64,000 bases of DNA, from NCBI GenBank assembly GCA_963717005.1, contig OY970324.1, forward strand, positions 4,241,937 to 4,305,936, in the 5' to 3' direction. The DNA comes from an uncultured delta proteobacterium (GTDB taxonomy: Bacteria; Desulfobacterota; Binatia; Binatales; Binataceae). Of this stretch, positions 14,370 through 33,023 are shown piece by piece. The position numbers were made by a program, and so were the translations under genes. Below the pieces are notes generated by a model, which saw only the letters and a list, made by a program, of their open reading frames with translations, made no database searches and was not told the DNA's origin. How positions within the stretch are numbered: the stretch's first letter is position 1; each line of letters opens with the position of its first letter.

Positions 14370-15554
14370 TTGATTGAAACTGCCTTAATCGCCGCTCCTG
14401 ACCGCGCGGACAATGCGGTATTCGGCCGCCCGCTGTTAGAGCGGCTGATGATCAACTGCGAGCGCGCCGGGATTAAACGATTCGTCATCGCAGCGCCGCG
14501 TGAGAATTATTCGGACGTCGCGCGCGCGATGGGCCGGTTCAAAAATTTGGACTGCGTCTCGATGGTCGAGTCGTTCGACAAGATTCTGAATCCAACCGAT
14601 GCACAGGAATTGGGCATCGACCCGTCGTCGCCGTGCGTGTCTTTCTCGGGCAATCTGGTATTTGCGAAGTCTCAACTGAAGCAGATTCTCGACGCCCACG
14701 CTTCGAATCCGCAATCGGTACATCGGGCAGTCAGCACCGACCAGGACCGCGGCGGCGAAATTGCGACCGGACGAATCGCGGAGATCCTGAAGCGCGGCGG
14801 CATTTCCAATAGCGTCACGAGGCCGGCGGCGAGCCTGCTGCCTTTTGCGCTGAACGGGCGGCCCGAGGATCGCGAAGAAGCGGAGCTGCGGCTGGCGAAA
14901 TCGATTCGCGAGGAATCGGCGCATAAGGACGCGCCGATGGCGCGATGGGTGGACCGTAAGATTTCCTGGCGCATCAGCTATTGGCTCGCAACGCACACGC
15001 GCGCCACGCCGAACATGGTCACGGTTGCGAACACGATGTTCGGGATTGGGTGCGCGTGGATGTTCGCGGTTCCGAATTACTGGATGCGGCTGTTCGCCGC
15101 GATTTTCTTTTTGATCTCGATCACAATCGACGGGGTCGATGGCGAATTGGCGCGGCTCAAGATGGTAGAGAGCGATTTCGGCGGCCGACTCGACATCGCC
15201 ACGGACAACATCGTGCACGCCGCGGTATTCGTCGGCCTGCTGATCGGATGCTACCGGGTCGAGCACAGCCGCGCTTACCTGTACCTGATTCCGTTGCTGC
15301 TCGGCGGATTCGCAATGTGCGCTTACGCCACGTGGCGCGCCTTCGAGATAAGGGGCGCGCAGGCGGCAGCCTGGCTCGACAAAGTCGATCGATGGAGCGG
15401 GCGCGATTTCGCCTACCTGCTCGTGGTATTGGCCTTAATTAATCGGCTAGAGTACTTCGCCTGGGGGACGGCATTTGGCACCTATGTGTTTGCCTTCGTC
15501 CTGATTTGGATTACCGGCCGGACCGCGTCGTCAATGAAGACTGAAAGCCTGTAG
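14370..15554 (+). CDS. Fusion protein: N-terminal nucleotidyltransferase-like domain (signature degenerate) plus C-terminal CDP-alcohol phosphatidyltransferase membrane domain
   Basis: The C-terminal half has DGVDGELARLKMVESDFGGRLDIATDNIVH, which matches DG(x2)AR(x8)G(x3)D(x3)D. Several TM helices are predicted. In the N-terminal half the position of the GxGxR motif reads ALIAAPDRADN. Confidence 0.75.
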   Translation: MIETALIAAPDRADNAVFGRPLLERLMINCERAGIKRFVIAAPRENYSDVARAMGRFKNLDCVSMVESFDKILNPTDAQELGIDPSSPCVSFSGNLVFAKSQLKQILDAHASNPQSVHRAVSTDQDRGGEIATGRIAEILKRGGISNSVTRPAASLLPFALNGRPEDREEAELRLAKSIREESAHKDAPMARWVDRKISWRISYWLATHTRATPNMVTVANTMFGIGCAWMFAVPNYWMRLFAAIFFLISITIDGVDGELARLKMVESDFGGRLDIATDNIVHAAVFVGLLIGCYRVEHSRAYLYLIPLLLGGFAMCAYATWRAFEIRGAQAAAWLDKVDRWSGRDFAYLLVVLALINRLEYFAWGTAFGTYVFAFVLIWITGRTASSMKTESL

Positions 15555-15587
15555 GAAAGGAATCGAGGCCTGCATGGCGGAGGAAGT

Positions 15588-16919
15588 ATGAACGGCAAGA
15601 AGCCACGAATTCTCCTGGTGCAACCCACCACCGTCCATCTGGACGGCACACCGCACAAAACGCGCTGGCGGCTGATAATGGGTCTCATGATTCCGCTGAT
15701 GGCGGGACTGACGCCCGACGACTACGACGTGACGCTGTGCGACGAACGCCTCGAGGACATCAACTTCGACGGCGGATGGGACCTGGTCGGGATGACGACG
15801 ACGATCGGCGCGTCGCTGCGCGCGTATCAGCTCGGCGACGAGTTCCGCAAACGCGGCATCCCGGTGGTGTTCGGCGGATTCCATGCGACGCTGCAGACCG
15901 AAGAAGCGCTGCATCATTGCGACGCGGTGGTGAAGGGCGAGGCCGACCTGGTGTGGCCCGAGCTGCTGCAGGATTGGCGCGACGGCAAGCTCAAGCAGAT
16001 TTACAAAGCCGACAAGGTGCACGATCTGAAAAACCTGCCGCGCCCGCGCCACGAGCTGCTCAAGCTCAACCGCTACCTGTTCAAGGCGGTGCCGGTGCAG
16101 GCGAGCCGCGGCTGCCCGTATCGATGCTCGTTTTGCGAGATTCCGGTGTTCTACGACGGCGCGTATCGCACGCGTCCAATCGAGGACATCGTCGAGGAGA
16201 TCAAGCAGGTCATGAAGGTGACCGGCTTCAAGCGCTTCCAGTTTATCGACGATCAAATTACGGGCAAGCACAAGTTCGCGCGCGAGCTGTTCAAGGCGCT
16301 CGAGCCCCTCAACATCCGCTTCTCGTGCCTGTGGACGATCAACTCGAATCATGACGACGAGCTGCTCGACCTGGCGGCCAAGGCGGGAATCTTCCACGTC
16401 AATATCGGGGTGGAATCGATCAGCCAGGACAGCCTGCTGTCGATGAACAAGATTCAGAATCACGCGGGGCAGTACAAGAAGCTGCTCAAGAAGCTGGAAA
16501 AATACGGAATCTACTACTCGCTCAATTTCCTGTTCGGGCTGGAAGAAGATCACCCGGGAATTTTCGACGACACGCTGAAGTTCCTGCACGAGGTCAAGGC
16601 GCCCGAGGCGTTCTTCAACACCGTGACGCCGCGGGTCGGCACGCCGATGCGCACGCAGCTCGAGAACGAAGGCCGCGTGATAATCCCCGACGCCGACCTC
16701 TACACCAACAACTTCCGCTGCATGTTCGTGCCCAAGAACATGTCGCCGCAGGAAGTCGAGGAAGGCGTGTGGCGTTGCACCAAGGAGTTCTACTCGCTGA
16801 AGTCGATGTTCAAGCGGCTGCTGCTGCCGCCGGGCAAGTTCACCTGGCAGGGACTGACCGAGAACATGCTCTTCTATTGGGGCGCGAAGCGACAGATCGA
16901 TCCGGTTGATTATTATTAG
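15588..16919 (+). CDS. B12-binding domain radical SAM enzyme
   Basis: N-terminal Rossmann-like B12-binding region followed by CPYRCSFC (CxxxCxxC). Confidence 0.85.
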   Translation: MNGKKPRILLVQPTTVHLDGTPHKTRWRLIMGLMIPLMAGLTPDDYDVTLCDERLEDINFDGGWDLVGMTTTIGASLRAYQLGDEFRKRGIPVVFGGFHATLQTEEALHHCDAVVKGEADLVWPELLQDWRDGKLKQIYKADKVHDLKNLPRPRHELLKLNRYLFKAVPVQASRGCPYRCSFCEIPVFYDGAYRTRPIEDIVEEIKQVMKVTGFKRFQFIDDQITGKHKFARELFKALEPLNIRFSCLWTINSNHDDELLDLAAKAGIFHVNIGVESISQDSLLSMNKIQNHAGQYKKLLKKLEKYGIYYSLNFLFGLEEDHPGIFDDTLKFLHEVKAPEAFFNTVTPRVGTPMRTQLENEGRVIIPDADLYTNNFRCMFVPKNMSPQEVEEGVWRCTKEFYSLKSMFKRLLLPPGKFTWQGLTENMLFYWGAKRQIDPVDYY

Positions 16920-16938: not shown

Positions 16939-17253
16939 TTGATCCTGAAGACGCTCGCGGTCCTGGTGCTCGCCGCGGCACTCGAGGTGGGCGGCGATGC
17001 GCTAGTCCGCATAGGACTACATAGCTACGGCTACTCGCTCGCGGCGGGCGCGTTCGCGCTTTTCTGCTACGGGGTGCTGGTCAACCAGAGCGGCGTCGAT
17101 TTCAACCGCCTGATGGGCATCTACATCGCGGTGTTTTTCGTGGTGTCACAGGTAATCTCGCTGATTCTCTTCAAGCAAGTCCCCGACGACCGAATCCTGC
17201 TTGGCGGCGGCTTCATAGTAACCGGCGGCCTGTTGATTCTGTTGATGACGTGA
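16939..17253 (+). CDS. Small 4-TM membrane protein, YnfA/SMR-like (DMT superfamily)
   Basis: 104 aa with a TTG start. Hydrophobic, with a conserved Glu in TM1 (ALEVGGD). 20 nt downstream of the rSAM gene. Confidence 0.5.
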   Translation: MILKTLAVLVLAAALEVGGDALVRIGLHSYGYSLAAGAFALFCYGVLVNQSGVDFNRLMGIYIAVFFVVSQVISLILFKQVPDDRILLGGGFIVTGGLLILLMT

Positions 17254-17399
17254 CCGCGCCGCGAAACCACGGCAAACTTGCTAGAGCTGCCGCGGGTTTG
17301 AGGCGGCCACGGAGAGTATAGCGAGGTCAGTTGTTGTCGCTGCCAGAACCGGAACCGTTGCCGCCGTTTTCGTGGAAAAAATCGGTCCCTCGATCAGGA

Positions 17400-17633
17400 T
17401 TAGCGGGCAATGACGAACCCTGAGAGTTTGATCCGTTCGAACCCGCCGCCGGCCTGAGTCGAGGCTCCTTCGCTGCTAGGACTTTGCGTGGCGGTGTTCG
17501 ACTCCGAATTCACTGTATTGGCCTGCTGGTGGACGTTGTCACCAGTGTCTTGAGAAAAAGAACGTCCGCTGGATGCGACCAATAGGAAGGCTGGTCGTCA
17601 ACAGTGAAATACTAAAAAAGAAGCGGTTCATGA
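17400..17633 (-). pseudogene. Possible frameshifted small secreted protein (signal peptide MNRFFFSISLLTTSLPIG in one frame; S/T/Q-rich 60-aa ORF in the next frame)
   Basis: An ATG with a signal-peptide-like N-terminus at about 17630 runs into a stop after 31 codons. The adjacent frame continues as ORF 17400-17582. Confidence 0.25.
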
Positions 17634-17755
17634 TTTCCCTTCCCTATTGGTTACAGTTTCAAATCTTGGGCGGGCGGGCTCCTTGATAACGCGAATAGAT
17701 TCGAAATCGGAGTGCATCGGAGCGGCGTTCATCAAAACAAATGCTGATCCGCGCA

Positions 17756-18367
17756 TCAGAATAAATCGTCGAGTGCCAATGAATATTGGAAGCGGACGAA
17801 GCGATCGGCCGTGCCGTTCAGTTCTGCGCCAACGTCGAAGTCCAGAAGCTGCCTATCTGTTATCGTGCACTCGGCACCGCCGCCGACAGTCTGGCCGCCT
17901 AACGACTGATAAGAATAATTTCCGGTGTACTCTCCATACAGGCTGCCGCCAGAGTCGAGCTGCCTTTCGACAGTCAAAGTCGGTTCAGGGCCCGACCAAC
18001 TCGGAGAAGCCGTGCCATTAACGGTCCATCGGTCGTCGATCGGCTGTGACCAGGAGGGGACGTACGCAGAAGCAATGGAAGGATTGAAACCGCCGTTCCC
18101 TATTACCGGTCCGGTGCGATCCTGCCCACCCGCGCCCGGGATCGAAGCAGAGAAAGCGTTGCTCCCTGCTAGCGTCCCGGTGGAATCTAGCGAGCCTATG
18201 CTTGGCACAGAGGGAAGGCTATAAGAATTAGTCCGGATTCTCCGATGTGTGGTCCGATGACTGAAACTGGCGCGATAACCCATGTCGGCACTGTAGCCGC
18301 GGGCAAATCGACGCTCATGCCCCAAGCTACGGAGAGTCTTGCTGTCCAAAGAATCTCTCGAAACCAA
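17756..18367 (-). CDS. Hypothetical OMP-like protein fragment (G/S/T/Y-rich, C-terminal Phe)
   Basis: Alternating hydrophobic pattern and terminal ...FQYSLALDDLF typical of beta-barrel OMPs. No signal peptide, so possibly truncated or mis-started. Lower-GC region. Confidence 0.35.
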   Translation of the reverse strand: MVSRDSLDSKTLRSLGHERRFARGYSADMGYRASFSHRTTHRRIRTNSYSLPSVPSIGSLDSTGTLAGSNAFSASIPGAGGQDRTGPVIGNGGFNPSIASAYVPSWSQPIDDRWTVNGTASPSWSGPEPTLTVERQLDSGGSLYGEYTGNYSYQSLGGQTVGGGAECTITDRQLLDFDVGAELNGTADRFVRFQYSLALDDLF

Positions 18368-19667
18368 ACTCCTTTAAGGTCATCCTCACGCGATCCTGTT
18401 GCGTCATCTTTCGCGCGTTGGCGGGGCAAGCGGTGAGACAAGTTTCGTTTCCTGAGGTGCACGCGGAACAGGGGAGTTGATTGACAGAACACCCGCAGGG
18501 ATTGGTAAGACCCCCGGGTGTACATCCTATCGGGCCATAACAAAATCCTGTGCTGCCACCGCCGCCGGCGCTACCACCGCTACCACTTCCGCCACTAGAT
18601 GCAGCGTAAGCGCCGGCCGCGATCGCCCCACCCCCGAGTAAAACGCCACCTATGATCCAAGGAGCCCAGTTTGTGCCGCTGGAAGTTGATGTGCTCGATT
18701 GCACCGGTGGAAGCGGCGGAAAGTAGGGGGGCGGCGAAGAGGGTGGCGGATTCTCCGCAGTTTGCGGCGCACAGAACTGTCCGAGGCTGGTATTCAGGGA
18801 ATCAATGTCGGACATAATTCGCGACCGTGATTCAGAGAGTGAAGCAAGCGTGCGCTGGGCGTTGTTAATATCCTGCTGCGCAAGGTATCCCTTGCCCAAC
18901 GCGAAACCAACGTCTGTAACGACCTCTGTAACTTTGGTCGCGAGTATTGCCTCGGGTCCTAGAAGACCTGCCGCCGCGTCCGCAGTCTGGTTGCCGAGCG
19001 CGTCGTAGATTCCGCTATCGCCGAGGAATTTGTTGAATGCTTGGTACTGTTGGCTGATCTGCGTAGTTGCGGTCTGCAGTGACGTACCCAATGCGTTACC
19101 CGCCGTGTAGGAATCGCGGACGTTCTGCCAGTGGAGCGCGTATTCTTTGAGTCTCTTGAGCATTTCCACCGATGTAGTAATCGCGCTTTGGGAGACTCCT
19201 TTGGTAAGAAGGACTTGCTGCAGATTTTCCAGTTGGTTTGCTACCGCGCCGGATTGCGACGCGATTTCTGTGACCCCGGCGTCGGCCTGTTGGATCCCCG
19301 TCATGGCGAGATCGACTTCAGCTCTCGCTTTTTCCTCTATACCGCCTTGCAAAATGTTCTGCGTCCGCTTGATCGCATTGTCGATCGCGGGCAAACCAGC
19401 TTGGAGCCGATTGACAGCCGCAGTCATGTCTCCGCAACTGGCGGGCGCAACTGGTCCGCCGGGCGCCCCCGATTCCGGAGCGATCGGACTGCCGTTCCCG
19501 ATACCGGTGCCGCCGATCGACCCGCCTTCACCGGTGATCGGGGTGCCGTCCTGGGCGAAGACGTTAGTCAAGGGTGCGCCCATTGGCAGCATACATGCCG
19601 CCAAGATGAGACAGGTCAGTTTCTTGAGGAACCGTACCGATGCGCGTGACATTCTCAAGCTCGCCAT
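18327..19667 (-). CDS. Orphan secreted/membrane protein: signal peptide, about 330-aa helical Q/A-rich domain, Pro-rich linker, one TM helix, C-terminal 8-Cys cluster
   Basis: Strong RBS (AAAGGGGG) 7 nt upstream of the ATG. TM helix WAPWIIGGVLLGGGAIAAGAYAA. C-terminal CYGPIGC..CGC..CSAC..CLTAC. The local GC is clearly below the window average. Confidence 0.6.
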   Translation of the reverse strand: MASLRMSRASVRFLKKLTCLILAACMLPMGAPLTNVFAQDGTPITGEGGSIGGTGIGNGSPIAPESGAPGGPVAPASCGDMTAAVNRLQAGLPAIDNAIKRTQNILQGGIEEKARAEVDLAMTGIQQADAGVTEIASQSGAVANQLENLQQVLLTKGVSQSAITTSVEMLKRLKEYALHWQNVRDSYTAGNALGTSLQTATTQISQQYQAFNKFLGDSGIYDALGNQTADAAAGLLGPEAILATKVTEVVTDVGFALGKGYLAQQDINNAQRTLASLSESRSRIMSDIDSLNTSLGQFCAPQTAENPPPSSPPPYFPPLPPVQSSTSTSSGTNWAPWIIGGVLLGGGAIAAGAYAASSGGSGSGGSAGGGGSTGFCYGPIGCTPGGLTNPCGCSVNQLPCSACTSGNETCLTACPANARKMTQQDRVRMTLKEFGFERFFGQQDSP

Positions 19668-19936
19668 AACAATCCCCCTTTAGGAAAGGATATTGAATGA
19701 ACCGCAGCTAACCGAACGCCAAATGAACCGGCACGAATTAAGATCAGCGCCCTGAAGACAGGAGGTAGGGATCGTGGTTGAGAAGCGGGCGCACGCCGTT
19801 CAGCGGTGAAACCAAAGCATGACGCCAGAGTTAAGTCAAGCGACGACACTCAGTCATGAAGTTAACCAGACTGTGATAGCAAATCTACCAACTGATAGTT
19901 GACAGCTAATTGAAGCACTACGACAGGCAGCCTATG

Positions 19937-20782
19937 CTACGGATGAAGCACGGCGTTGTCTATCAGGCGGGTTTTGCCGACGCGGGCGGCGATTGCGATC
20001 AGGATTGGGCGGTCGAGCGACGGGTGGCGCGCGAGTGTTTCGGCGTCCACTGCTTCCACGTATTCGATCGCGATGCCTTTCATGCGCTTTAGGACGCGGG
20101 TGGCCGCGAACACTAATTCTTCGGCGCAGCATGGGTCGGCGCGATGCTTGTCGCGGGCGGCGCGGATCGCGAGATTTAGTGCGAGGGCGTCTTCGCGCTC
20201 GGTTGGCGAGAGGTAGGCGTTGCGCGAGCTCATCGCGAGGCCGTCTTTTTCGCGCACGATCGGCACCGGCACAATCTCCACATCGAAATTCAGATCGCGC
20301 ACCATCTTCTGGATCGCGCGAAGCTGCTGAAAGTCCTTCTCGCCGAAAACCGCCGAGTGCGGTTTCACGATGTTGAACAGCTTGGCGACTACCGTCGTCA
20401 CGCCGCGGAAATGGCCGGGGCGATGGGCACCGCATAGGCCGGCAGTGACTTCGCCCGCATCGACCCAGCTTTGCGAGTCGGGCGAGTACATCGCGGCGGG
20501 CTCCGGCGCGAAGACTACATCCACCGGCACCGTCTCGAGCATCGCGCAGTCGCGCTCGAAGTTGCGCGGGTAGCGCGCGAAGTCCTCGCCGGGACCGAAC
20601 TGCGTCGGATTGACGAAGATCGACGCGACCAGGACCGAGGACTGGCGGCGTCCCTCGCGCATCAGGGTCAGATGGCCGTCATGCAAGAAGCCCATCGTCG
20701 GCACCAGCGCGATGCGTTCACCGCGCTGGATCGCGACACTGGAAAAACGGGTCATCTCGTCGGGCGAGGTGATCACGATCAT
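19937..20782 (-). CDS. panC: Pantoate--beta-alanine ligase
   Basis: MIVITSPDEM...VPTMGFLHDGHLTLM (HIGH-like motif). Confidence 0.9.
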   Translation of the reverse strand: MIVITSPDEMTRFSSVAIQRGERIALVPTMGFLHDGHLTLMREGRRQSSVLVASIFVNPTQFGPGEDFARYPRNFERDCAMLETVPVDVVFAPEPAAMYSPDSQSWVDAGEVTAGLCGAHRPGHFRGVTTVVAKLFNIVKPHSAVFGEKDFQQLRAIQKMVRDLNFDVEIVPVPIVREKDGLAMSSRNAYLSPTEREDALALNLAIRAARDKHRADPCCAEELVFAATRVLKRMKGIAIEYVEAVDAETLARHPSLDRPILIAIAARVGKTRLIDNAVLHP

Positions 20783-21618
20783 CGCGAGGCCCTCCTCGAT
20801 TCGGCGTAGCAATGCTCCGGCGCAGGGAACGCGCGCGTTTTGACTTCGCGCACGTAGGCTTCGGTGGCGGACGCGGCGTCATTCCATAAATGGGCAAAGG
20901 GCTTGGCGAAGCGCGGCGCACACGACTCGTAGAGGCCGAGCATGTCGTGCATCACGAGCACCTGGCCGTCGCAATCGGGTCCGGCGCCGATGCCGATGGT
21001 TGGAATCGAAACGCTCGCGGTTATCTCGCGCGCCAGCGACGGCGGCACGCCCTCGACCACGATCGCGAACGCGCCCGCGGCTTCGAGCGCGGCCGCATCC
21101 TCGAGCAGCCGCTCGCGGCATCCGGCGGCGCGGCCGGATTTGCGGCCTTGCACGCGATGGCCACCCATCCGATGAATCGACTGCGGCGTCAGGCCGACAT
21201 GGCCCATCACGGGAATATCGACCGCGGCGATTCTCGCGACGGCGTCGGCGATCGCGACGCCGCCTTCGAGCTTCACCGCTTCGGCGCCGCCTTCCTTGAC
21301 CAGACGTCCGGCGTTGCGCAGCGCGTCTTCGGGACTCACCTGGTAGGAGAGGAACGGCATGTCGGCGACGACCAGCGCACGGCGCCGCGCGCGTGCGACC
21401 GCGCGGGTGTGGTAGATAACCTCGTCGATGGTGACAGCGAGCGTGGTCTCCTCGCCGCGCACCGCCATGCCGACGCTGTCGCCGATGAGCAGCACGTCGA
21501 TGCCGCAGTTGTCGAAGATTCGCGCGAACGGAAAGTCGTACGCCGTCAGCATCGTGATCGGCTGGCGCGCGGCCTTCATGCGGGCGAGATCGGGCACGCG
21601 AACTTTTTCTTGCGTCAT
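20779..21618 (-). CDS. panB: 3-methyl-2-oxobutanoate hydroxymethyltransferase
   Basis: MTQEKVRVPDL...TMLTAYDFPFA...GDSVGM. Overlaps panC by 4 nt (ATGA). Confidence 0.9.
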   Translation of the reverse strand: MTQEKVRVPDLARMKAARQPITMLTAYDFPFARIFDNCGIDVLLIGDSVGMAVRGEETTLAVTIDEVIYHTRAVARARRRALVVADMPFLSYQVSPEDALRNAGRLVKEGGAEAVKLEGGVAIADAVARIAAVDIPVMGHVGLTPQSIHRMGGHRVQGRKSGRAAGCRERLLEDAAALEAAGAFAIVVEGVPPSLAREITASVSIPTIGIGAGPDCDGQVLVMHDMLGLYESCAPRFAKPFAHLWNDAASATEAYVREVKTRAFPAPEHCYAESRRASR

Positions 21619-27872: not shown

Positions 27873-28484
27873 TTAGTGGTGAAATCCGAACAACGGACTC
27901 GACATCACCATTGGACTGCCCGCCGGACGCGAGAAGGCTGACATCGTGGGCGGATTCATCCAGGCGCCATGATTTAGCGGCGGGAGCGCAGCCTGAGTGA
28001 TCGGACTGCTCATCGGCACATAGGCGGACGCGGGCACCTGCGACCTTGGGTTCATCGTGCGTGCAACGGTTACCGGGTAAGGATAGACCGCATACGGAAC
28101 CGCATAGACCTGCTGGTTCTGATAGTCGTCGGCGTTAGCCCAATCCGAATCGGGCGTGCCGGAGCTGGCGGTGTCGTCATCGAAGACCGTCGGCGGAGCG
28201 CCCGGCGACGGCGCGTTAATGGCCTGGGTGTCGTCGTCGCTATCCGCGGCGGCGCTGTCGCAAGGAGCTGAAGCGTCGTTGCCGGCGCACGCTGCCTGTG
28301 GAATCTCAAGAACCTCGTTCGCTGATGCCGCGTCCTCATCCAGTGCGGGGCCGGCGCTGGTCCACCTCGCATCGACGCTGGTGCCAGACACCGGATCCTC
28401 CTGTGCGAGCAGCGGGCGCGCATTCACCAGTGCGGTTATCGCGAGCGCCGCGAAAATTGCCACGATTAACCGCGCATACTTCAT
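27873..28484 (-). CDS. Secreted acidic Pro-rich hypothetical protein
   Basis: Signal peptide MKYARLIVAIFAALAITALVNA. Low-complexity D/A/P-rich. Confidence 0.5.
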   Translation of the reverse strand: MKYARLIVAIFAALAITALVNARPLLAQEDPVSGTSVDARWTSAGPALDEDAASANEVLEIPQAACAGNDASAPCDSAAADSDDDTQAINAPSPGAPPTVFDDDTASSGTPDSDWANADDYQNQQVYAVPYAVYPYPVTVARTMNPRSQVPASAYVPMSSPITQAALPPLNHGAWMNPPTMSAFSRPAGSPMVMSSPLFGFHH

Positions 28485-29320: not shown

Positions 29321-29370
29321 CCGTCGCGCGGCTGGTCTTGGCGCAAGCGAATATATAATGATCGACGCGT

Positions 29371-29447
29371 CGGGGTGTGGCGCAGACTGGTAGCGCACTC
29401 GCTTGGGGTGCGAGTGGTCGCCGGTTCAAATCCGGCCACCCCGACCA
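29371..29447 (+). tRNA. tRNA-Pro (anticodon GGG)
   Basis: 77 nt. Acceptor stem CGGGGTG/CACCCCG, anticodon loop TTGGGGT, T-loop GGTTCAAATCC, 3' CCA encoded. Confidence 0.85.
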
Positions 29448-29616
29448 ATTTTCAAAGCTTGGTCAATCAAAGGATTTTCGTTTTCTTTGTCCGTCCCCGT
29501 ATTGTGCCTCCTCTGTGGCAGTTTCGGTATGTAGGGCCGTCTCCGCCGGACTCGGTTTCGGAAAATACCGATCGCCGTTCTCCGGGTTTGGACTCGGAGA
29601 CTCCGACGAGATTCCC

Positions 29617-29690
29617 TGATCTGGACCAACGATTCTGGAGTGTGCCGAGCTCCTGGCTGGCAACGATTGGCCATTGCTCGGAGACTGCCG
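29617..29690 (+). repeat. About 70-nt repeat, copy A (..ACCAACGATTCTGGAGTGTGCCGAGCTCCTGGCTGGCAACGATTGGCCATTGCTCGGAGACTGCC)
   Basis: Direct repeat of the 31200-31272 copy, at about 70-75% identity. Confidence 0.5.
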
Positions 29691-29908
29691 CCGTAGTATC
29701 AGCCGCGTCGCGCGCGAGCCACCTAGACCAGCGCCAGATCACAACCGCGGGCCACGAGGCTGTGAGCGACAACCTGTCCGATGCGCGCCCCATCGGTGAC
29801 TAGCGCCTCTTTGCCTTTTGGATCCATCTCGCTAGAGGTAGCTGAACAGACGCAATCGACTTTCCACTGCCCCACTCATTGGCTGGACCGCCGCCGGCGC
29901 GCTCGTGT

Positions 29909-30409
29909 TCAAACTTTGACTTCCCGTAGTCTGCCCGTGGCAACGTCGAAAATGGCGCCGCGCACGGGGACGTCTTTTGAAATCCAGGGATGCGACCTGA
30001 CTTTCTTGATCTGCTCCCGGGTATTTTGCTCGGGGTCCTTATAGGAGAAGAAGCGCATTGGAGCCGGCGAAGCATCTCCGGTCGAAGCGCTCAGCTTCGC
30101 ATTCAGCTCTTCATCTGTGAACGTCGTGAACCCGCAGCCGGTGTGGTTGAGGAGCAGTATCTCTGTGGTTCCGATTATGCGGTTGGAAACAATAAGTTCA
30201 CCGAGAACATCTTCGGTTACCGCGGGTCCGCCGGTTCGGATAACATCAAGATCGGCCTGCGGCAGGCCCAGGATTCCAGGGAGGTCTGAGATCCGTGGAT
30301 CCATGCAGGTTACAACTGCAATTTTGGGGGTCGGACGCCCCGCGTGCGTTGCATCGTAAGTTTTTACATAGTTGAGGTTTGCTTCCAGCGCTTTATCGAT
30401 AATGCTCAT
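29909..30409 (-). CDS. Beta-class carbonic anhydrase
   Basis: VVTCMDPR...HTGCG zinc-ligand motifs (Cys, Asp-x-Arg, His-x-x-Cys). Confidence 0.85.
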   Translation of the reverse strand: MSIIDKALEANLNYVKTYDATHAGRPTPKIAVVTCMDPRISDLPGILGLPQADLDVIRTGGPAVTEDVLGELIVSNRIIGTTEILLLNHTGCGFTTFTDEELNAKLSASTGDASPAPMRFFSYKDPEQNTREQIKKVRSHPWISKDVPVRGAIFDVATGRLREVKV

Positions 30410-30505
30410 ACGTTTGCTCCCGACGGGCGACCGATGCGGTCAAGCCCGTCATTAATAGTGTCGCTCTTCCGAAGAATTTATGGCCACTTCGATCTTCTTT
30501 AGCTG

Positions 30506-31024
30506 CTAGGCTTCCTGCTGCTCCGACGGCTTCGGCACCGGGCTTGACCGCCTGCTCATTAGCTGCAGGCTGCCACCTACGAGCCCGATCGCGAGCGCGG
30601 CAACGCCCCAGAAAGGACCTGACCAATCGATCCCAAGCGCCGCGTCGGCGGATATACCACCCGGACCCGCGAAGGCCACCGTCAGCGCACCAGTCGCGAG
30701 AGCGAGCGTGTACTCAAAGCCGCCGTTTTGCAGGAAGAAGCCTTTTGCCAGATGAACGCTCACTGCCGCCACAAACATGACCGAAATAAACGCGGCAGCG
30801 GCCAGCGGGGTCAAGAGGCCAGCAGCCAGCCCCAGGCCAGCAGCTCCCTCTACCAGGCCCGCCACCAAAGCTTGCAGCCGCGGTGGTCGAAAACCAAGTT
30901 GTTCCATCATCTGTGCGGTGCCGGCAATGCCGGAGCCCCCAAACCATCCGAATAACTTCTGAACACTGTGCGCCGTCAGAGTTAAGCCGAAAACAAGACG
31001 AAGGATCAAAAGTCCAAGATCCAT
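30506..31024 (-). CDS. DoxX family membrane protein
   Basis: 4 TM segments. MDLGLLILRLVFGLTLTAHSVQKL is typical of DoxX. Confidence 0.75.
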   Translation of the reverse strand: MDLGLLILRLVFGLTLTAHSVQKLFGWFGGSGIAGTAQMMEQLGFRPPRLQALVAGLVEGAAGLGLAAGLLTPLAAAAFISVMFVAAVSVHLAKGFFLQNGGFEYTLALATGALTVAFAGPGGISADAALGIDWSGPFWGVAALAIGLVGGSLQLMSRRSSPVPKPSEQQEA

Positions 31025-31199
31025 GATCTACCTCGATTTCAGATCTTCGGTGTAGCGGGATGCGCCCCGGCAGGCGCGTCCTTTTTTTGTAGTGGCGCTC
31101 TTCCGAAATCGGCTGCGATGGAGCGATTGTGCTCCGGGTAGTCAATTGCGTCAAACCGATCCTCCGATGAAGAGGGGACTGAATCGTCAGGCTCCCGGC

Positions 31200-31272
31200 C
31201 TGAACCAACGATTGTGGAGCGCGCTGAACTCGTTGGCTAGAAACGATTCGCGATTCCTCGGAGAGCTTTGCT
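31200..31272 (+). repeat. About 70-nt repeat, copy B
   Basis: CTGAACCAACGATTGTGGAGCGCGCTGAACTCGTTGGCTAGAAACGATTCGCGATTCCTCGGAGAGCTTTGC aligns with copy A. Confidence 0.5.
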
Positions 31273-31312
31273 ACAATCGACTCAGAAGGCGATTTCAGGG
31301 AGGTAATGGTTT

Positions 31313-32254
31313 ATGAGTGACACCGACGGCCTTCGTCATACAAAGATACCGCTCAACAACGGCTCCGCTGAGATTCCAGCGCTCGGCTTTGGCACGCTGA
31401 TTCCAGATCCGATCGCGACAAAAGAGGCAACGAGGACCGCGCTTGAAGCGGGCTTTCGTCAATTCGATTGCGCCGAGCGTTACCGAAATGAAGAACAGGT
31501 GGGCGAAGCGATGCAGGCGGTGTTCAAGGAGGGCAAGGTCAAACGGAAGGACGTTTTTGTAGGTACGAAGCTCTGGAACAACAATCATCGTCCCGAACGC
31601 GTTAAGCCCGCCTTCGAGGCAAGTCTGAAAAGACTGCAACTGGACTATGTCGATCTATACAGCGTCCATACCCCATTCGCTTTCAAACCTGGCGACGAGC
31701 AAGACCCGAGAGACAAGAACGGTAATGTAATTTATGACGACGCGACGACGCTGACGAATACCTGGAAGGCTTTGGAGAGCCTGGTCGATGAAGGTCGGTG
31801 CAAGGCGATCGGATTATCGAACGTCAGTTTGGGGCAGCTGAAAGAGGTGTTCGATATCGCTCGCGTAAAACCATCTGCGGTTCAGGTTGAATCCCATCCG
31901 TATCTCCCTGAATGGGATCTGCTCGACTATTGCAAGAAGAATGGCATCGTGATGCAGGCCTTCGCTGCCTTGGGTCATGGTATCGAACCCAAGTTGATCG
32001 ACAATCCTGTGATCACCGTGATTGCAAAGCGCGTCAACAAAACTCCCGCTCAAGTTCTGCTAGCCTGGGCGCTGCAGCGCGGCACGGCTCCTCTCACCAC
32101 CTCTACCAGCGTCCGCTACATTAACGAAAACTTTGATGTCTCGGCTCTTCCCGATGACGCCATCGAGGAGATCACTAAAGGGATAAGTACGCGAGTCAGG
32201 CTCAATTCGGTGGTTGACACGGGCATCCCGGGGTTCATTCCCAGGGGAAGATGA
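31313..32254 (+). CDS. Aldo/keto reductase
   Basis: AKR catalytic tetrad context (D..Y..K..H; SVHTP, GLSNVS). GC is clearly lower than the window average. Confidence 0.85.
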   Translation: MSDTDGLRHTKIPLNNGSAEIPALGFGTLIPDPIATKEATRTALEAGFRQFDCAERYRNEEQVGEAMQAVFKEGKVKRKDVFVGTKLWNNNHRPERVKPAFEASLKRLQLDYVDLYSVHTPFAFKPGDEQDPRDKNGNVIYDDATTLTNTWKALESLVDEGRCKAIGLSNVSLGQLKEVFDIARVKPSAVQVESHPYLPEWDLLDYCKKNGIVMQAFAALGHGIEPKLIDNPVITVIAKRVNKTPAQVLLAWALQRGTAPLTTSTSVRYINENFDVSALPDDAIEEITKGISTRVRLNSVVDTGIPGFIPRGR

Positions 32255-32380
32255 AGGTTCAAGCCGGAATTTCCCGCGGCGGATCCCGAAAATCGAGCAA
32301 TGCGGCGGTTTCAGCCCGCTGGCGTAACCTGATGGTCGCCGGCCGCGTCCTTATAGTGTCACCGATGCGTGGCAGTCTTT

Positions 32381-32905
32381 ATGTCAAGGGAGCATCAGAA
32401 AATTCGCGAGATACCTGCCGACTACGGTCACCGGGGAATTCTGTGTGCGCTCGTGTTCGCGACGCTGATGGTAGTTTCGATCGTTGTGACGACGCAGGCT
32501 GCTCCGGCCTTCGCTGATGTTTCGCCGATAGTCGAAGACGCGGTCGCAGGCCCTCGAATTGACGACTCGCAGGTCCAGTTGGCGCAGGCAGATCTTAACT
32601 CAGGCGTCGGCAGTCTGAACGACTACATGCACCAGGGGGGCGATGGGCCATCGACCGCAGCAGTTCCGCCGCCGGCGTATTCGCCGCAAGCAGCTGCCCC
32701 GCAAAGCTTTTATCCCCAAACTGTCCCATCGCAGGAGTGGAGCAATCAGTACGTGAATCCTAAGACTGCCCGCGACGTGCTGATCGGCGCAGCGGTTGTG
32801 GGCGCGATAACAGTGGGCTTGTGGGCATACCAGCAGCATGAGATGCATCAAGCTCAACAACGTGCCCGCAAACGATTCTATTGGCCGCGACGCGCGTACC
32901 GGTAG
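32381..32905 (+). CDS. Hypothetical membrane protein (2 TM segments, Pro/Gln-rich middle)
   Basis: Long ORF with hydrophobic segments ILCALVFATLMVVSIVV and VLIGAAVVGAITVGLWAY. Start ambiguous (GTG 32369 or ATG 32381). Confidence 0.45.
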   Translation: MSREHQKIREIPADYGHRGILCALVFATLMVVSIVVTTQAAPAFADVSPIVEDAVAGPRIDDSQVQLAQADLNSGVGSLNDYMHQGGDGPSTAAVPPPAYSPQAAAPQSFYPQTVPSQEWSNQYVNPKTARDVLIGAAVVGAITVGLWAYQQHEMHQAQQRARKRFYWPRRAYR

Positions 32906-33023
32906 CTGGAACGAATCGCCGTGTCGGCCTATGCGCCGTTCCGCCGACTGGCAGTCTTACTTGCTGCAAATTTCTGGGCAGTGCTAAAGGAATAAGCGGC
33001 TCTCACTGCACGGTCCCTCATCG

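Follow-up and report, generated by a model that had tools for sequence, protein, structure and literature searches.

One gene read as two: a mosaic protein ending in part of a COG4313 outer-membrane barrel in a genome of the Binataceae

Introduction

The locus studied here lies between a ynfA-like gene (16939-17253, +) and panC (19937-20812, -) in the genome of an uncultured soil bacterium of Candidatus Binatus (Binatota, Binataceae). We have analysed a stretch of 64,000 nucleotides (nt) around it, which we call the window: positions 4,241,937 to 4,305,936 of contig OY970324.1, assembly GCA_963717005.1. Positions refer to the window unless another contig is named. An initial annotation, made from the letters alone, had described in this interval a gene for an orphan protein of 446 amino acids (aa), a fragment of an outer-membrane protein and a frameshifted small open reading frame (mini-ORF), and saw in them a decaying cassette acquired by horizontal transfer. 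The question raised by this locus is whether these are the remains of several elements or whether they belong together. The two larger ORFs turn out to be parts of a single gene, the product of which is a mosaic with a signal peptide, a helical module and roughly half of an outer-membrane barrel.

The description of the interval as a low-GC islet is confirmed. The guanine plus cytosine (GC) content is 0.563 in positions 17280-19930 and 0.621 in the whole window, which places the islet in the 0.8th percentile among segments of the same size. At third codon positions (GC3) the content is 0.617 in the 446-aa ORF and 0.593 in the 203-aa ORF which overlaps it, as compared with 0.76-0.85 in the flanking genes and 0.777 +/- 0.045 in the 61 likely genes of the window, which were used as a baseline. 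From the ynfA-like gene to panC, a normal coding signature is missing throughout. The window has only one other multi-kb stretch of this kind, at 29.3-33.0 kb.

A single gene interrupted by one nucleotide

As shown by the alignments, the ORFs of 446 and 203 aa are one gene of 636 codons (17756-19667, -), interrupted by a single-T insertion at 18348-18350, because a related contig (L001) and four other homologues (P0003-P0006) encode both parts in one frame. The homologue P0002 sits on L001, a metagenomic contig of 16.8 kb with the same gene order as the window: panB, panC, the gene, ynfA-like, a B12-binding radical SAM gene and a CDP-alcohol phosphatidyltransferase. The two sequences are collinear, and L001 codes for an uninterrupted protein of 634 aa from the matching ATG (641 codons from stop to stop). 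It keeps the same Shine-Dalgarno sequence and the upstream in-frame ATG; the JGI call of P0002 starts too late. In a base-by-base alignment the window has GAGAGATTCTTTGGAC, that is GAGAGATTC[T]TTGGAC, and L001 has GAGAGATTC-TTGAAC: one T is the sole difference in frame. When the extra T is removed, 19667..18351 is joined to 18349..17759 and a protein of 636 residues is obtained.

The other homologues tell the same. In P0002 and P0003 the Cys-rich region runs on into a C-terminus which matches the 203-aa ORF (...RFQYSLALDDL), and the same N-to-C order is found in one frame in P0003 (559 aa), P0004 (628 aa), P0005 (688 aa) and P0006 (649 aa). The exact 446-aa product is present in the public record, as found by a search of 5.8 billion proteins, together with the longer P0002 and P0003. 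The features described in this ORF are all there: the AAGGGGGA Shine-Dalgarno sequence, an N-terminus which looks like a signal peptide, a helical region, the PPPSSPPPYFPPLPP linker, a hydrophobic segment and eight tail cysteines. As a separate protein it does not hold, since it is the broken front of the 636-codon gene and its final seven residues (FGQQDSP) are out-of-frame read-through. There is a lesson for annotation here: one indel is enough to make a single gene look like an "orphan" and a "pseudogene fragment".

No stop is found within 197 codons downstream of the frameshift. Since this part is free of stops and its beta module is under purifying selection, the frameshift is either a very recent lesion or an assembly artefact. 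The gene may be inactive in this genome, but the idea of a decaying cassette rests on one indel of 1 nt, possibly an assembly error, and we do not keep it.

Layout of the protein and its relatives

The product of the restored gene is shown to be a mosaic, formed by a Sec signal peptide, a helical bundle, a Pro-rich linker, a Gly/Ala segment, an eight-Cys knot, a basic disordered linker and a half barrel (Table 1). An exhaustive HMMER profile search among 1.84 billion cluster representatives gave 110 matches at E <= 1e-3, so that the protein is not an orphan in the strict sense. The matches form four groups. The same full architecture is found in P0003, P0004, P0005 and P0006, and partial pieces of it in P0007 (123 aa, the N-terminal end) and P0042 (213 aa, the beta module). 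A second group, with many members of 360-470 aa, has the signal peptide, helical module, Pro-rich linker, hydrophobic segment and Cys-rich tail, with no beta module. The third one is made of longer secreted proteins which have the helical module at their C-terminus. In the fourth group only the beta module is matched; 20 of these proteins are Pfam PF13557 (Phenol_MetA_deg, equivalent to COG4313), with a best E of 5.3e-20. Apart from this one, no Pfam family recurs among the family members. The clusters which we looked up are singletons or tiny, and they are either unnamed or called "hypothetical protein".

The helical module is therefore seen in three contexts: before a hydrophobic segment and Cys-rich tail, at the end of longer secreted proteins and in fusion with half a COG4313 barrel, which is very rare. 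A word-indexed search with an alignment of 63 N-domain sequences gave at least seven proteins. With the beta-module alignment (A2) such a search gave nothing, not even P0002 and P0003, which contain the query, so this negative is unreliable. A metagenome scan with the A2 alignment gave 156 pattern matches, with no relative among them.

In P0042 the fused-type beta module (...PDDHWSMSETTGAGWSGGPAVAPTLMVERELDSFGSIYAE) runs straight into an rve integrase core. It is clearly a copy of the same gene family, disrupted by an insertion sequence (IS), in another community.

The beta module

The 203-aa ORF had been described as the C-terminal part of a beta-barrel outer-membrane protein, and this is correct. 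It is neither separate nor decayed: it is a conserved C-terminal module, with a ratio of nonsynonymous to synonymous substitution rates (dN/dS) of 0.17. With the profile of the fused family, stand-alone PF13557 barrels are recovered across the library, at E values as low as 1.6e-9. In the opposite direction, a profile made of stand-alone barrels only matches the window protein through profile positions 150-265 of 265, with E 1.9e-20. No match to positions 1-149, the N-terminal half with the plug, was found even with filters off and E <= 10. By these profile alignments the module is shown to correspond to the last ~43% of the 12-stranded outer-membrane barrel of COG4313/PF13557, which is about 6-7 strands or roughly its back half.

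COG4313 barrels are monomeric and 12-stranded, and an N-terminal segment plugs their lumen (PMC4493636). The module shares with the channels of this family (Pput2725, TcpY, SphA) the strand pattern and the motifs PWS, EPTL.ER, EY.G.Y, Q.DF and GYS..LD.L. It differs from them by the lack of the N-terminal plug and of the first half of the strands; ~525 unrelated residues precede it instead. A remnant of the COG4313 plug in the linker, proposed from MAFFT and hmmsearch, was rejected as circular: the profile included the window sequence, and the remnant was absent in a non-circular test.

An AlphaFold2 model from 29 sequences has seven strands in residues 99-193 of the C-terminal piece, with a predicted local distance difference test (pLDDT) of 80-96, after ~95 disordered residues. 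Almost all its Foldseek matches are outer-membrane barrels, every one of them with E >0.02. The model superposes on barrels with 12-18 strands (R. blastica porin, DcaP, KdgM) at 3.4-4.5 A and on the 8-stranded OmpX/Ail at ~10 A. Since the fit to the larger barrels is far better, the module is, as modelled, an open and gently curved sheet, not a small closed barrel. The hydropathy of its columns correlates with that of true barrels (r = 0.72), the C-terminal strand GY(S/T)x(D/R)L is kept in P0003, P0004 and P0006, and a conserved Cys has been gained in the fused module. Nowhere are the window and P0003 more alike than in the beta part (69% identity in A2). A sequence search of the PDB with the beta-module profile gave no hit.

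The helical module and the hydrophobic segment

In an AlphaFold2 model from 63 sequences there are six helices in residues 78-298, of which the first and the last are ~60 residues long, with pLDDT >90. The module is bracketed by C78 and C299, two cysteines conserved in 90% or more of the family members. We infer that they form a closing disulfide, and hence that the module lies in an oxidising compartment. The family has the motif C..M...V.RL.AGLP.Q..I.R.E, and its second Cys ends a module of ~220 residues; this is also the case in the window protein. About 95 of the sequences gathered here match the helical-module profile. The window protein has E 7.2e-99 with the A4 profile, which includes its own sequence; independent members of the family have E 1e-20 to 1e-4 with the A1 profile. 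No family for this module was found in Pfam, NCBIfam, PHROG or PADLOC: the N-terminal part and full-length relatives gave only noise below threshold (PRIMA1, TraP, JetC). On these profiles, the helical module belongs to an unannotated family.

The Foldseek matches with the lowest root-mean-square deviation (rmsd) are McpS, TorS and PilJ (10-11 A, E 0.02-0.1, TM-score <=0.38). Their HBM/4HB sensor domains are similar in size (~220 residues), all-alpha and built with two very long terminal helices around shorter ones. The window protein differs from them by its inferred disulfide closure, by a Pro-rich linker in place of a continuous signalling helix and by the lack of a cytoplasmic output domain. 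No Pfam hit to 4HB_MCP, HBM, HAMP, MCP-signal, kinase or other output domains was found in the window protein or its 109 relatives, in agreement with the earlier remark that the layout does not match common families such as chemoreceptors. This similarity of fold is not taken as evidence of membership. A sequence search of the PDB with the helical-module profile gave coiled-coil noise only.

Residues 334-357 had been taken as a single transmembrane helix followed by a Cys-rich tail, a topology which is doubtful. The segment has a mean Kyte-Doolittle hydropathy of 1.7, a Hessa sum of about +2.6 kcal/mol and no helix in the AlphaFold2 model. Among 48 members of the family with a locatable hydrophobic stretch after the helical domain, the median Hessa dG is +2.0 kcal/mol, and the net charge, +0.29 before the segment and -0.62 after it, shows no positive-inside bias. 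The number of cysteines in the tail is even in 36 of the 48 and never zero; in six of the odd counts the stretch fell inside the helical domain, so that the closing Cys was also counted. The statistics of the segment, the mostly even number of tail cysteines and the outer-membrane ancestry of the C-terminal module favour export of the whole chain over a single-span topology with a cytoplasmic tail. The Gly/Ala segment itself might serve as a zipper in oligomerisation, plug the lumen or insert into a membrane.

Age, selection and distribution of the gene

Between the window and L001, DNA identity is 88-89% in the flanks and 80% in the gene. The synonymous divergence (dS) of the gene is 0.53, within the range of the flanking genes (0.26-0.73). 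This places the gene in the common ancestor of the window and L001; judged by dS, it predates their split and has not been exchanged recently. The gene has an overall dN/dS of 0.26, as compared with 0.01-0.12 in the flanks. The ratio varies along the chain, from 0.17 (beta module) and 0.19 (helical module) to ~0.5 (Cys and linker regions). The 197 codons after the frameshift have 0.30 overall.

The distribution of the gene was studied in 80 loci gathered from species-representative genomes, with the adjacent radical SAM protein as anchor. All 80 are metagenome-assembled genomes (MAGs) of Candidatus Binatus / Binataceae (Binatota), many of them in long contigs. With tblastn the gene was found in none of them within 10 kb on either side of the anchor. 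Both flanking genes are kept in 24 loci, in which the ynfA-like gene and panC lie 19 nt to 2.9 kb apart. Among loci L002-L029 and L068, the junction is empty (19-85 nt) in some Ca. Binatus species and has unrelated cargo in others. By Pfam the cargo is a BrnT toxin with a CopG antitoxin in L004, Gp49/HigB-like with HTH_37 in L024 and L068, an IS481-type transposase in L006, an HNH endonuclease in L009 and the aspartate decarboxylase PanD in L022. An enoyl-CoA hydratase (ECH) is found at the junction in several loci, L001 among them.

The four closest relatives by identity of the anchor gene (L019, L004, L005 and L003, 90.6-93.2%) lack the gene, and L001 (90.2%) has it. The gene is shown to be shared vertically with at least one related lineage and to be absent at this site in the other species sampled. 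The ynfA-like/panC junction is a recurrent hotspot for insertion of accessory genes in Ca. Binatus, in which this gene is patchily distributed, and this supports the idea of an islet. Of the proposed horizontal acquisition, the atypical composition, the accessory character and the hotspot stand, but a recent date does not agree with the dS of the gene. No boundary repeats, integrase or att-like signature were found around the islet in the window, and promoter and terminator scans of the islet remained at chance level. No paralogue of the helical or beta module was found in the window or in the 80 loci.

Proposed mechanism and its precedents

The observations can be joined in the following account, which we consider rather probable as a whole: a single gene codes for a mosaic protein which acts as an exported tether at the outer membrane. 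Sec would export the whole chain. The helical bundle and the Cys knot would fold with disulfides in the periplasm, and BAM, the machinery of outer-membrane barrel assembly, would insert the C-terminal half barrel into the outer membrane. A half barrel would be unable to close alone and would pair with its own copies or with another barrel; this pairing would anchor the helical module at the outer membrane. In the present genome the gene would be either newly inactivated or intact, with an indel of the assembly.

Several points weigh against this account. Hydrophobic residues have been lost systematically in two strands of the beta module (GMFTVTW->GTASPSW and LFVEYVG->LYGEYSG), and the fused module may no longer be embedded in the membrane. 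The Pfam model of PF13557 gives no hit on the 203-aa ORF at E <= 0.1 (hmmscan), and none on P0003 either. The beta module was modelled as a monomer, and its oligomerisation is putative. No gene close by stands out as a partner. The search for remote homologues has placed the beta module in COG4313/PF13557, but for the helical module fold searches return generic helical matches only. Finally, the hydrophobic segment, with its hydropathy of 1.7 and aromatic residues at both ends, is more hydrophobic in P0011 (-1.1 kcal/mol) and P0056 (-0.1 kcal/mol). It could be a real anchor in the inner membrane; the beta module would then lie in the cytoplasm and the model would fail.

The principle of splitting a barrel among chains is that of trimeric autotransporters and TolC. 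In trimeric autotransporters (type Vc, YadA-like) each chain gives 4 of 12 strands, and the barrel is closed only in the oligomer. The likeness is one of concept, a partial barrel at the C-terminus after helical or coiled-coil regions. In our case there would be ~6-7 strands per chain, from another barrel family, with a hydrophobic segment and a Cys knot in between. Scans of Pfam and NCBIfam detected no YadA anchor or autotransporter families.

Another precedent is FapF, in which a periplasmic coiled coil follows the signal peptide and a disordered linker leads to an autotransporter-like 12-stranded barrel; its oligomerisation is driven by its helical part (PMC5557850). The layout is comparable, from the signal peptide through a periplasmic domain of helices or coiled coil and a long disordered linker to a C-terminal barrel of autotransporter/COG4313-like 12-strand type (PMC5557850). 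The features proper to FapF are not seen here, namely the complete plugged 12-strand barrel, the 40-residue coiled coil, the plug helix before the barrel and the fap operon; there are no fap genes beside the locus, the neighbours of which are panC and the ynfA-like gene. FapF is a weak fold hit only (5o68, E 0.27-0.5). Compared in this way, the protein is neither a FapF nor a trimeric autotransporter, and its resemblance to them is architectural only; nor is it a complete COG4313 channel.

A more daring proposal, which we regard as quite unlikely, is that the fused proteins (window/L001 and P0003-P0006) are a new outer-membrane anchor, a halved COG4313 channel which closes only as a dimer or higher oligomer, with the bundle and the Gly/Ala segment driving assembly or plugging the lumen. 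If it were true, it would be a second and independent origin of the split-barrel-per-chain principle. A shared barrel would be of interest for BAM-dependent assembly and type V-like secretion.

Alternative explanations

The extra T may be an indel of assembly or base calling in an organism which has the intact gene of 636 codons; we give this a substantial chance, somewhat short of even. The codons downstream of the site evolve as those of an intact gene, stop-free and with the dN/dS values given above, overall and in the beta module. The source is a single contig of 4.58 Mb and many of the closely related MAGs, named MFD, are in long contigs, which suggests a long-read assembly here as well. 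On the other hand, the difference is between runs of two and three T, not a long homopolymer, and when ~30 kb of the window were compared with 14 related loci, no second convincing frameshift came up in the conserved genes; what looked like recurrent ones, at ~10480 and ~29320, were ordinary gene junctions viewed through antisense ORFs. The disrupted P0042 indicates that inactivation of such genes does occur. It is very improbable that the two ORFs are independent elements, a gene for a 446-aa membrane protein and the remnant of a COG4313 porin gene without its N-terminus. As assembled they are in different frames, each with a possible start codon, and the beta part covers only the end of its barrel family; but five diverged homologues carry both in one frame, the junction of L001 differs by one base, the beta part is the best conserved one with respect to P0003 and its dN/dS is low, and the TTG start lies inside the upstream coding sequence. 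Programmed +1 ribosomal frameshifting at UUC-UUU-G, which would give the full-length protein and a shorter isoform of 446 aa, is hardly credible at all: the U-rich run looks slippery and is followed by a zero-frame stop seven codons on, but all relatives are single-frame without the extra T, and at the site there is no in-frame stop, obvious rare codon or stimulatory element similar to a Shine-Dalgarno sequence, nor any match in Rfam.

The topology of the protein allows a different reading, which we think unlikely. It would be a type I protein of the inner membrane, with a periplasmic helical domain, a membrane span formed by the hydrophobic segment, and a metal-binding Cys tail and all the rest in the cytoplasm, as in a sensor or anchor. 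Such a layout would agree with a hydrophobic stretch of ~23 residues of the hydropathy given above, flanked by W334/W337 and Y354 in the manner of an aromatic belt, with the CxxC-like spacings of the tail, with the strongly basic stretch after the Cys region and with the fact that the least bad superpositions of the ectodomain are periplasmic sensor domains. It conflicts with the family statistics, which give no positive-inside bias and a marginal dG, with the lack of a modelled helix and with even Cys counts, which suggest disulfides. A conserved module from an outer-membrane barrel, with the hydropathy of membrane strands, makes little sense in the cytoplasm. Besides, the Pro-rich linker parts the bundle from the segment, unlike in signalling receptors, and no sensor or output domains were detected by Pfam. 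The account with an exported tether at the outer membrane is the one we prefer.

Features of the locus and other observations

The coordinates of all features are collected in Table 1.

Table 1. Features of the ynfA-like/panC interval, and examples of the same junction in related loci (coordinates of each locus)
Feature	Position	Strand	Comment
446-aa ORF	18327-19667	-	ATG start, AAGGGGGA Shine-Dalgarno 5 nt upstream
203-aa ORF	17756-18367	-	41-nt overlap with 446-aa ORF; TTG start
Frameshift site	18348-18350	-	TTT run, one T more than L001; stop 7 codons on, 18327-18329
Start codon and Sec-type signal peptide (residues 1-38, ...NVFA, followed by Q)	19554-19667	-	conserved in P0003-P0007; modelled helix 3-26
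Helical-bundle module (residues 78-299)	18771-19436	-	six helices; bracketed by C78 and C299
Pro/Ser/Thr-rich linker (residues 300-333, PPPSSPPPYFPPLPP...)	18669-18770	-	from sequence
Gly/Ala-rich hydrophobic segment (residues 334-357, WAPWIIGGVLLGGGAIAAGAYAAS)	18597-18668	-	marginally hydrophobic
Gly/Ser spacer and Cys-rich knot (residues 358-414, eight Cys)	18426-18596	-	from sequence and alignments
Basic low-complexity linker, predicted disordered (residues 415-525)	18092-18425	-	spans frameshift; fastest-evolving part, dN/dS ~0.5
Beta module (residues 526-636)	17759-18091	-	stop codon 17756-17758; COG4313/PF13557 C-terminal ~43%
Upstream non-coding region	19668-19925	-	conserved in blocks with L001 (pairwise alignment); AAGGGGGA Shine-Dalgarno at 19673-19680
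~500-nt segment	17254-17755		hydrophobic mini-ORF 17539-17631 (-) and other-frame 60-aa ORF 17400-17582 (-)
Junction gap, L004	11663-12390
Junction gap, L006	11656-14350
Junction gap, L009	11663-14534
Junction gap, L024	11656-13270

The gene is flanked by two further segments. The upstream one probably holds the promoter and the 5' untranslated region. Its conserved blocks, in ~230 nt upstream of the ATG (L001 4954-5232), include TCGCTTGACTTAA, CCTCCTGTCTTC and TTTGGCGTTCxGTTAGCTGCGGTT; they could be a promoter or a structured leader, and Rfam has no match in this region. The segment of ~500 nt on the other side is absent from L001, where the stop codon is 20 nt from the ynfA-like gene. With blastn and tblastx it has no match in the 80 loci or in the rest of the window, and it belongs to no Rfam family. 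It contains the frameshifted mini-ORF of the initial annotation. The description is right in that a hydrophobic ORF starts with ATG and continues in another frame, but no homologue was found in the data searched and it cannot be distinguished from chance ORFs.

In two short contigs of only ~2 kb, the proteins P0113 and P0112 (341 aa, helical module only; L082 191-853 and L083 384-1022) each have a DUF4919 gene directly upstream.

The B12-binding radical SAM gene next to the locus (14370-16919) has a dN/dS of 0.01 with respect to L001 and 96-99% amino acid identity across 26 Ca. Binatus-like loci. It clusters with genes for a CDP-alcohol phosphatidyltransferase, HAD phosphatases, a nucleotidyltransferase and an aminotransferase (L001 7489-14492). 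This conserved cluster looks like one for biosynthesis of lipids or of their head groups.

Elsewhere in the window, positions 27873-28484 (-) code for a protein of 203 aa with a signal peptide and an acidic, Pro/Ala-rich body of low complexity, unrelated to the 636-codon gene. The second stretch without a normal coding signature (29321-33023) has a GC content of 0.571, and its ORFs have a GC3 of 0.60-0.65, as compared with a typical value of 0.78. It is possibly another accessory islet.

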